Source of the DNA: a virus
Lineage: Duplodnaviria; Heunggongvirae; Uroviricota; Caudoviricetes
Reading direction: 5' to 3' (one strand)
Length of the DNA stretch: 18,536 nucleotides
Virus record (IMG/VR): IMGVR_UViG_2744054582_000011
Location: 1 to 18,536 of that record
Of the stretch, positions 15,942-16,687 are shown in pieces. Within the stretch, counting starts at the first letter, position 1. Each line of letters begins with the position of its first letter. The position numbers and the translations under genes are program-made. Under the pieces are notes generated by a model. The model was not told the origin of the DNA. It made no database searches and saw only the letters and a program-made list of their open reading frames with translations.

Positions 15942-16041
15942 AACTCCTCCTGAAACAGAGCCGGTTTTTAGCCATGTCCGGCACATGGTCTTGTGGTAAG
16001 ATCGAATCGCCAAAAACAACCAACCACAAGCGAGGTAATAA

Positions 16042-16236
16042 ATGAATAATCAAAATATTGACGAACTTATAACCACTCTCGAAAAAGCGGTTGCATTAGC
16101 AAATACCCTGCCAACTCCAATGGGAGATTTTGAGGACGCTAAAAAAGTGGATGAATTAACTATTCAATTAAGAGAGATCATTCACCCTAAAAAGCCAGTC
16201 CAACTCAAAGGCTTTATTGATATAAATCATTTTTAA
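16042..16236 (+). CDS. Hypothetical 64-aa protein, opposite strand to the early operon, convergent with the 154-aa gene
   Basis: ATG at 16042 with GAGGT 6 nt upstream; AT-rich; 3' end overlaps the 3' end of the 154-aa gene by 23 nt. Confidence 0.45.
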   Translation: MNNQNIDELITTLEKAVALANTLPTPMGDFEDAKKVDELTIQLREIIHPKKPVQLKGFIDINHF

Positions 16237-16678
16237 AATAGCATCTTGCATCCGTATGCTGTTTATACGGATGCGTCATCATGTCAAAAATACTTTTCCA
16301 GTCATCAAGCCCTATTGACCATTTAATACTATTTATATCGCCTGATTTAGAAATTATCGTTTCACGAAGCGCCTTAGCTAGTTCCATGCGCTCTTGAACG
16401 GTCATACCAACGCATTCATATTTAATGCGCAAAAAAGAGTCATAAAATAAAGATTTCAAATTCAGCCGTAGAATTTCTTCATCACCATCTGAACTAATAA
16501 AAACAAGTTCATCATTATCCAAAATGATATTTTGTTTTCTCAATTCATCGGCTGATTTATATTCTTTCGTACTATTAGCAAACTCACTATACGTAATAGT
16601 TAGGCTGTTAGATGGTGATGCATCTTCAAGGTTTCCTCTGATGATAGTCACCGATGTTTTATTTAAATCTTGCCTCAT
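16214..16678 (-). CDS. Hypothetical 154-aa acidic protein, first gene after cox; AT-rich insertion
   Basis: ATG at 16676-16678 with GGAGGAGCC immediately upstream, 10 nt after the cox stop. Markedly AT-rich. No counterpart in the P2 cox-orf78-B arrangement as I recall it. Confidence 0.6.
   Translation of the reverse strand: MRQDLNKTSVTIIRGNLEDASPSNSLTITYSEFANSTKEYKSADELRKQNIILDNDELVFISSDGDEEILRLNLKSLFYDSFLRIKYECVGMTVQERMELAKALRETIISKSGDINSIKWSIGLDDWKSIFDMMTHPYKQHTDARCYFKNDLYQ
16248..16274. other. Perfect 10-bp stem-loop (GCATCCGTAT / loop GCTGTTT / ATACGGATGC)
   Basis: Exact inverted repeat read from the sequence, 12 nt after the 64-aa ORF stop and inside the 3' end of the 154-aa ORF. No T-tract follows on the + strand. 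Confidence 0.6.
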
Positions 16679-16687
16679 GGCTCCTCC

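Follow-up and report, generated by a model that had tools for sequence, protein, structure and literature searches.

Sequence comparison places a convergent two-gene cassette between cox and orf78 in a multi-allelic accessory-gene hotspot of P2-like phages

The P2 genes old, tin and fun are independently transcribed, AT-rich, non-essential and expressed in lysogens, and in phages P22 and lambda the exclusion gene sieB lies antisense in the early operon and is switched off by the early transcript (sas RNA). In phage 186, the interval between apl (its cox) and the gene for a DUF2732 protein holds the leftward promoter pE, cII, fil, which encodes a cell-division inhibitor, and dhr, which encodes an inhibitor of host replication. 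The hotspots described for P2 lie between A and Q, in the tail genes and between int and att, and include a broad, unresolved 'integrase to primase' class. Here, we analysed an 18,536-nt stretch of Caudoviricetes DNA (positions 1 to 18,536 of IMG/VR record IMGVR_UViG_2744054582_000011; this whole stretch is referred to as the window), of which the 3′ third holds the early genes and regulatory region of a P2-like (Peduovirus) prophage. A cassette of two convergent genes, p64 on the + strand and p154 on the − strand, lies there between cox and orf78. Comparison with related loci identifies this cassette as the type A allele of an accessory-gene hotspot that has many alleles among P2-like phages; a predicted promoter scaffold is conserved there and the genes are exchanged. 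The cassette and its two flanks comprise the following features.

15942-16687: the cassette (whole insertion), 746 bp, from the orf78 start codon to the cox stop codon.
15771-15941, − strand: orf78, 56 aa, the conserved left flank of the hotspot (PHROG 273, E=3.4e-39; annotated as gp78 in Wphi).
15960-15964 and 15978-15982: inverted repeat 1, GCCGG/CCGGC, seen in the sequence and conserved in cassette loci.
15972-15976 and 15984-15988: inverted repeat 2, CCATG/CATGG, seen in the sequence and interleaved with repeat 1.
15994-16002, + strand: predicted extended −10 element, TGgTAAGAT, with a weak −35, from conservation.
16003-16041, + strand: leader or 5′ untranslated region (5′ UTR) of p64, from conservation between genera.
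16042-16236, + strand: p64, 64 aa, hydrophilic and mildly acidic, with homologues at the same site and pairwise substitution ratios.
16248-16274: perfect 10-bp hairpin, GCATCCGTAT / ATACGGATGC, 12 nt after the p64 stop and inside the 3′ coding end of p154.
16214-16678, − strand: p154, 154 aa, first gene after cox in the early (Pe) operon, with a family of 20 clusters and pairwise substitution ratios.
16682-16690, − strand: Shine–Dalgarno sequence (SD) of p154, AGGAGG, fused to the cox stop codon TAA, seen in the sequence.
16688-17044, − strand: cox, a long variant of 118 aa, the conserved right flank and gene 1 of the early operon (Pfam Phage_Cox, E=8.6e-29; PHROG 1831, E=1e-60).

The position is the same as that of the 186 early region, directly after cox/apl and before the DUF2732 and replication genes, where 186 keeps early accessory genes that act on the host. 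The two loci nevertheless differ in their genes and in their promoters, since neither p154 nor p64 has similarity to CII, Fil or Dhr, and the sequence of the window promoter is unrelated to pE and has no match in 186. In pE, the repeat ATGTTTG-N13-CAAACAT ends 10 nt before the −10 element, whereas the window repeat GCCGG-N13-CCGGC ends 14 nt before it; furthermore, the promoter predicted here would drive a small protein gene followed by a hairpin, whereas pE drives a repressor/integrase transcript. Like the P2 morons (old, tin, fun/Z) and the P2 defence hotspots (Rousset et al. 2022; Moura de Sousa et al. 2026), the locus is AT-rich and non-essential, with cargo swapped horizontally between conserved genes and a fast turnover of alleles. 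The likeness to morons may extend to p64 as a candidate autonomous promoter–gene–terminator unit, p154 being an in-operon gene. It differs from the described P2 hotspots in its site, between cox and orf78, and in its architecture, which is always a convergent pair with one gene in the early operon and a conserved promoter scaffold. The site, the antisense promoter and the small-protein superfamily described below are apparently new to the literature searched: Rousset et al. 2022, a 2026 survey of P2-virus diversity and a 2011 analysis of the P2 regulatory region give neither genes between cox and orf78 nor the window promoter; PMC13586616 and PMC13100340 make no mention of cox or orf78, the site falling only inside the broad 'integrase to primase' interval of PMC13586616; and PMC9122126 makes no mention of gpB, 'early genes' or 'repressor C'.

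The segment 15942-16687 is an insertion relative to the common arrangement, since cox and orf78 adjoin both in Wphi, where 2 bp separate the end of cox from orf78, and in 77 of 80 P2-like loci fetched from IMG/VR via gpB. An AT-rich insertion at this place had been proposed in the initial annotation of the window, and comparison of the cox–B interval across P2-like genomes upholds it, the cassette being absent from canonical P2-type genomes and having a GC content of 33-36% over 16000-16600 against 45-50% in the flanks. In the manner of a moron, it lies between genes that are adjacent in relatives and deviates from them in base composition. P2-like prophages are a model for prophage-borne defence hotspots and are common, the neighbouring B/orf78 segment being present in 1,669 of the 5,426 complete E. 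coli genomes (~30%); the entire cassette, searched as a 771-bp region by megablast, occurs at 99% identity in only 4 of them. Neither gene was found in 50,697 sequenced phage records (blastn, tblastn), and p154 had no match in 72,556 plasmids (tblastn). Both open reading frames (ORFs) are labelled hypothetical protein by PGAP.

The ~100 nt between orf78 and the small ORF, hereafter the leader, are far more conserved than the cassette genes. Type A and type B leaders are 99% identical up to 16029, and between genera leader identity is, by eye from the alignment, ~80-90% even though the synonymous sites of the coding regions are saturated. A 27-nt promoter pattern taken from the leader, CCATGNNCGNNNCATGG N1-4 TTGTGNTA, matches 91 IMG/VR contigs, which are P2-like in the contexts checked, so that the cassettes are easy to find. 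Behind it lie 56 distinct + strand ORFs, mostly of 57-78 aa with some of 151-158 aa. The cassettes fall into at least 12 types, all of which have one − strand gene or more in the stretch from the + strand gene to cox. Among the loci examined, none had a gap between cox and orf78 and no leader. This allelic series on a conserved promoter scaffold is the main point about the locus, and one that its initial description as a single insertion missed.

Besides type A, the hotspot includes type C (58 aa on the + strand, 62 aa on the − strand) in the Yersinia phages vB_YpM_115 and vB_YpM_117 and in E. coli L3Cip3; type B (68 aa and 198 aa, respectively) in E. coli 90-3040; and type A2, in which a p64 homologue faces an unrelated 79-aa protein, in Huaxiibacter and Enterobacter bugandensis. 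Type G consists of multi-gene cassettes with a homologue of phage 186 Fil (PF10893, E=9e-24; PHROG 816, 'host takeover'), which makes host takeover the only functional annotation at this slot. The − strand partner families (p154, the 79-aa family, KPHQK, B198, C62, G141, H114 and L203) have no mutual homology, all hhalign probabilities being at most 2%. Several Cox/immunity types carry cassettes, which suggests that these move independently of immunity.

Within the leader, conservation points to a promoter directed against the early operon. In all of 59 distinct leaders (~100 loci), the TG is present and the hexamer has T, A and T at positions 1, 2 and 6, whereas positions 3-5 vary; this is the signature of a sigma-70 extended −10 promoter, with transcription predicted to start near 16009. 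Most loci have an SD-bearing + strand ORF whose start lies 42-80 nt farther downstream; with a filter for start codon, SD and length, 88 of 101 segments gave one. A consensus promoter scan omitted the element at 15994-16002 because it requires a −35 match. By inspection, the leader contains no LexA box and no Ogr-type TGT-N12-ACA late-promoter element. The 5′ UTRs fall into a short class of 42-45 nt, CGAATCGCCAAAAACAA..., which is the class present in the window, and a long class of 65-71 nt with a 6-bp hairpin of its own (ATGCCG...CGGCAT; leaders L116-L206).

No cassette-bearing locus lacks either inverted repeat, and this holds also for the loci that were found without use of the leader pattern. 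With its centre ~38 nt before the predicted start of + strand transcription, the GCCGG/CCGGC repeat could serve as an operator or as the binding site of an activator. Two compensatory changes of base pair are seen in its stem (C-G to U-A, and G-C to A-U); the count is 5 cells against 1.4 expected and was reached in 1 of 500 shuffles. The CCATG/CATGG stem is invariant, in part owing to the construction of the search pattern. Read as − strand RNA, the same repeats may fold into a hairpin or pseudoknot immediately upstream of the orf78 ribosome-binding site. A possible H-type pseudoknot in the early mRNA would have 5-bp stems, 1-nt loops and an A-rich third loop of 7 nt, and would lie 8 nt upstream of the orf78 SD. 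An Rfam search of 15700-17200 found no known RNA family, RNA-OUT scoring 20 bits against a threshold of 41.

Every cassette type examined also has a strong hairpin behind the stop codon of the + strand gene, at a position within the 3′-terminal part of the − strand gene. The hairpins of types B and A2 precede a T-run on the + strand alone, which gives them the shape of a unidirectional intrinsic terminator; such a structure would stop + strand transcripts yet let the early transcript pass. The hairpin of the window (16248-16274) is a candidate 3′-end or terminator structure of the + strand transcript; lacking a T-run, it was not called by a terminator pattern scan.

The + strand gene itself is conserved. 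An ORF of 64 aa with a good ribosome-binding site had been reported at 16042-16236, and indeed the SD GAGG (16032-16035) lies 6 nt before the ATG. Homologues of the same length, 47-65% identical and always at this site, occur in Citrobacter, Salmonella, Yersinia ruckeri, Huaxiibacter and Enterobacter prophages, so the conservation of this ORF among related insertions, on which the initial annotation had made its proposal depend, is found. They share the motifs ELIxTLEKA, LxIQLRE, KxP and FxDIN. Pairwise ratios of non-synonymous to synonymous substitution (dN/dS) are 0.07-0.43 for p64 and 0.09-0.44 for p154, with synonymous sites saturated in both, and together with the conserved homologues these values indicate that both are protein-coding genes under purifying selection. 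In word-indexed searches of 5.8 billion proteins, p64 and p154 each returned only their own cluster; p64 had no match in Pfam, PHROG, PADLOC, NCBIfam or PDB, and no helix-turn-helix (HTH) was detected in it. That database searches with the 64-aa protein return almost nothing, and that gene callers mis-start the ~60-aa genes in some loci or miss GTG and TTG starts, gives the leader pattern some value for annotation.

Over 52 columns, the p64 family aligns with a second group of small proteins, the 'KYP' family found in types E, G, L125 and L161 (hhalign gives 85% probability and E=5.8e-6). The alignment covers the proteins from end to end, and many cassette types therefore share one superfamily of ~60-aa proteins. 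By eye, these proteins read as a helix, a Pro-containing loop, a second helix, K-(K/Y)-P (K-x-P in p64) and a short tail; within the superfamily, the N-terminal part is conserved and the tail is variable. The small proteins of types B and C did not reach significance against the p64 profile (E=0.07 and 0.06); the type B protein has an ...IQLE...YLDLN pattern in common with that profile, and we leave its membership open.

The − strand gene p154 was described as acidic and as the first gene after cox; both hold, the protein being mildly acidic (pI 5.1; 25 D/E against 20 K/R). Its SD/cox-stop junction, ...CCTCCTTAGG, is also present in the unrelated type C cassette of vB_YpM_117. An exhaustive HMMER scan yielded two true relatives (P0003 and P0006), and a profile built from these recovered a wider family of 20 clusters, 32-44% identical, from E. 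coli, Citrobacter, Salmonella, Kluyvera and Y. ruckeri, with a conserved DDW..IF motif. Six of six contexts (P0003, P0010, P0020, P0021, P0022 and an E. coli copy) place the homologue in the cox–orf78 interval of a P2-like prophage, and every context examined has the order int, C, cox, p154 homologue, convergent 62-68-aa ORF, orf78, B. The convergent ORF is a p64 homologue except in P0020, which has a type B partner.

Two further candidates from the scan were set aside. P0005 is a low-complexity artefact. P0007 (412 aa, with four Helicase-associated HA repeats, PF03457) matches p154 residues 81-145 at E=1.5e-7, with a VEERM...L...DDW..F pattern across repeat boundaries; its score is summed over the repeats and probably inflated, and Pfam scans of family members do not reproduce the match.

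In agreement with the earlier remark that neither protein is recognisable, p154 and its family members had no match in Pfam, PHROG, PADLOC or NCBIfam, including none to CII or an HTH, and the family profiles gave chance-level matches only against PDB sequences. The AlphaFold2 (AF2) model of p154 is unusable, with a predicted local distance difference test score of 41.5 from the single sequence and 50.0 with the 20-sequence alignment; its low-confidence secondary structure is beta-rich in the N-terminal half and helical in the C-terminal half, and a Foldseek search of the model against PDB returned nothing at E<=0.001.

The coding regions of p64 and p154 are convergent on opposite strands and overlap by 23 nt at their 3′ ends, as first described, yet relatives do not conserve this overlap, which measures 17 nt in the nearest of them and 4 nt among the 139-aa homologues; other cassette types range from a 7-nt overlap to a gap of 2-3 nt. 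Sequence comparison indicates that the 23-nt overlap is peculiar to this lineage and incidental. What is conserved is the sense/antisense layout in the early operon, which looks designed, the + strand gene having its own predicted promoter and downstream hairpin. Both slots are filled in every cassette type examined. Of 47 loci of types A, A2, B and C scored with tblastn, 37 have both genes at full length; the other 10 are locus-end truncations or divergent homologues, with no stop or frameshift.

Moreover, the partners change together. The + and − strand proteins co-diverge in the A2 and L149 lineages, and divergent A2-like − strand partners (37-40% identical) accompany divergent small proteins of p64-like appearance; this parallel divergence of the A2-like partners suggests an old pair. 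In P0020, a p154-type N-terminal part is joined to a 70-aa domain of the type B 198-aa protein (43% identity, E=2e-11), and the small partner is the type B small protein. Similarly, the KPHQK family has three C-terminal tails, each with its own type of + strand gene. That the + strand type tracks the C-terminal module of the − strand protein may reflect an interaction between the small protein and this module.

We tentatively favour, among the possible functions, a state-toggled pair in which p154 is an early accessory protein directed against the host and p64 is its guard in the lysogen. With its SD fused to the cox stop codon and the gene directly behind cox, p154 would be made as soon as Pe fires, and the conserved promoter-like leader together with the downstream hairpin makes p64 look like a self-contained transcription unit antisense in the early operon. 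In the lysogen, Pe would be repressed by C and the + strand promoter free, so that p64 would be made and p154 would not. Upon infection or derepression, strong convergent transcription from Pe would cross the + strand promoter and the p64 gene and silence p64 through interference and antisense RNA while p154 is produced, such that the pair would act as a toggle between lysogeny and lysis with its two products in opposite states. A Fil homologue in type G and fil and dhr in the 186 slot point to the − strand slot as a place for early genes that act on the host, and p154 could accordingly be a host takeover or counter-defence protein, like Fil and Dhr at the equivalent place in 186. p64 would keep its function off in the prophage, as a protein antidote, through convergent transcription, or both, and a possible side effect would be protection of the lysogen against incoming relatives that use the same early protein.

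Several observations weigh against this proposal. The + strand promoter is predicted from conservation, and the hairpin of the window has no T-run. Neither protein resembles toxin, antitoxin, defence or anti-defence families (Pfam, PHROGs, PADLOC, NCBIfam, PDB profiles), and both are acidic, unlike the usual toxin–antitoxin (TA) pattern of an acidic antitoxin and a basic toxin. To our knowledge, 186 fil and dhr have no antidote. The pairings are also mixed, p64-type proteins occurring with two unrelated − strand families (139-154 aa and 79 aa) and the KPHQK family with three + strand families, and these mixed pairings, together with the acidity of both proteins, disfavour a simple, specific protein–protein antidote. 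Finally, the link between + strand type and C-terminus may be a by-product of swaps between homology arms, the leader providing one arm and either cox or the conserved 5′ segment of the − strand gene the other.

A broader proposal, possible but held with still more reserve, concerns the hotspot as a whole. In the lysogen, the conserved antisense promoter with its interleaved repeats would express ~60-aa proteins from a superfamily that evolves rapidly, every one of them fitted to the C-terminal module of its convergent early partner, and the on and off states would be set by convergent transcription and not by a repressor. The cassettes would then form a new class of prophage systems, of either an exclusion/escape or an effector/guard kind, with p64/p154 as the founding member and no relatives in known defence, anti-defence or TA families. 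Should the two genes of a cassette be functionally coupled, the pairs would represent a new class of compact, convergent two-gene systems and candidate exclusion, counter-defence or host-takeover modules, and P2-type phages would gain an occupant for the slot that cII, fil and dhr use in 186.

In the main alternative, which we consider rather unlikely, the roles within the pair would be reversed. Here, p64 would be a superinfection-exclusion or abortive-infection factor expressed in the lysogen, antisense transcription from Pe would stop its new synthesis in lytic growth, and p154 made from Pe would neutralise the p64 already present, the escape serving an induced prophage or an infecting sibling. 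The conserved convergent architecture fits this arrangement as it does the guard, and the P2 autonomous AT-rich morons old, tin and fun are themselves exclusion genes. The direct precedent is sieB-esc-sas, in which a lysogen-expressed gene (for p64, such expression is a supposition) is likewise antisense in the early operon and opposed by the phage's own early transcript; it shares no sequence similarity with the cassette, and its Esc protein is made in frame from sieB itself, whereas the partner in the window is a separate convergent gene. SieB, at ~190 aa, is also larger than p64. An arms race would be expected to produce such extreme diversity of alleles behind a single promoter, the tracking of the adjacent C-terminal module by the + strand type would suit a factor and its escape protein, and 8% of the defence systems of P2-like prophages lie between integrase and primase (PMC13586616). 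A soluble protein of 58-68 aa with no enzymatic or membrane domain would, however, be an unusual defence effector, and conservation of the + strand protein opposite unrelated supposed escape proteins is the reverse of what a lock and key would predict. Nor did PADLOC find a known defence gene in the window cassette or a family for the type C pair, and ten further + and − strand hotspot proteins gave two chance-level matches only (Cas7f/Cas7fv, E=0.008-0.014; CARF3, E=0.004).

Less likely again is that the cassette holds two independent accessory genes with no functional link, one expressed in the lysogen from the slot behind the promoter and the other early in lytic growth from the slot behind cox, each slot being open to unrelated cargo. 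The mixing and matching of + and − strand families, the lack of homology between partners and of any known pair family agree with this, and recombination between the leader and cox, or the conserved 5′ parts of the − strand genes, would explain the swapping. It accounts less readily for the filling of both slots in every cassette type, for the absence of disrupted genes among the type A, A2, B and C loci (37 of 47 being full-length for both), for the absence of cox–orf78 gap loci without the leader, and for the co-divergence of partners in the A2 and L149 lineages. Highly improbable, by comparison, is a lysis–lysogeny regulator like 186 cII/pE, in which p154 would activate the antisense promoter and the leftward transcript would interfere with Pe, feed C and int, or both, and so promote lysogeny: in 186, pE and cII occupy exactly the corresponding place, after apl and before the downstream early genes, the two promoters are alike in their poor −35 and in the geometry of their repeats, centred near −38 in each, and P2-type switches are said to be without a cII equivalent (PMC3448106), but p154 has no detectable HTH or CII similarity, the same promoter and repeats accompany unrelated − strand proteins, the hairpin or terminator after the + strand ORF probably keeps the transcript from reaching C and int, and TGn extended −10 promoters normally need no activator.

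The initial annotation had read the layout as typical of TA, abortive-infection or exclusion modules. This is a reasonable guess and may be right; PADLOC, Pfam, NCBIfam, PHROGs, PDB profiles and AF2/Foldseek identified no such function. As in type II TA systems, there are two small adjacent genes, both intact, whose families mix and match and whose small partner has a variable tail; in contrast to them, the genes are convergent and do not form an operon, in the window as in all homologous loci, and neither protein has a known toxin or antitoxin domain (Pfam, NCBIfam, PADLOC, PHROG, PDB). The difference from type I systems lies in the proteins, both of which are hydrophilic (grand average of hydropathy −0.28 and −0.53), so that there is no hydrophobic membrane peptide, and in the 3′ overlap, which is not conserved. 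The hotspot also recalls anti-CRISPR/aca loci, where diverse small early genes lie beside a more conserved small marker gene between conserved phage genes, but the conserved small gene here has no detected HTH, is antisense and not co-transcribed, and no anti-defence model matches.

Some loci depart from the two-gene arrangement. Multi-gene cassettes such as that of L144 (IMG/VR 2636415529_000007), together with L124, L153, L183 and L194, encode a DUF4761 protein, a single-pass membrane peptide, a 186 Fil homologue and a protein of 132-141 aa, and the 58-aa small gene of L144-like cassettes has a TTG start and was missed by ATG-only ORF calling. In L157 (IMG/VR 3300031415_000158), the 139-aa − strand ORF adjoining cox carries, within the early operon, a truncated copy of the N-terminal domain of GpO (capsid scaffold/protease; PF05929, E=8e-10), which could serve as a decoy or dominant-negative against competing P2-like phages or P4 satellites. 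The phage group of L125 (8237-9331; IMG/VR 2706795674_000001) has the promoter/small-gene module and a convergent 158-aa early gene between the repressor and cox, not after cox; in its N-terminal region the 158-aa protein looks, by eye, similar to the type A2 partner of 79 aa.

The remaining genes of the early and regulatory region of the window are as follows.

11680-14007, − strand: gene A.
13955-15210, − strand: homologues of orf83, orf82 and orf81, an extra 83-aa ORF and a homologue of orf80, in that order.
15274-15774, − strand: B.
17148-17447, + strand: C repressor (HTH_3).
From 17541, + strand: integrase.

The Cox protein of the window (118 aa, PHROG 1831) is longer than that of P2 and Wphi (~90 aa). 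The A–Q interval, the classical P2 defence hotspot and the position of old and tin, contains a 311-aa ORF (10385-11320, − strand) and a 109-aa ORF (11376-11705, + strand) between gene A and the portal gene Q, neither with a Pfam match. The extra 83-aa ORF (14738-14989, − strand; 39-40% GC) lies between the DUF2732 (orf80-like) and DUF5405 (orf81-like) genes, has no Pfam match and is present neither in Wphi nor in E. coli BUCT2930. Yersinia phage vB_YpM_117 has an 81-aa ORF at the same place, and the position looks like a second variable slot of the early operon.

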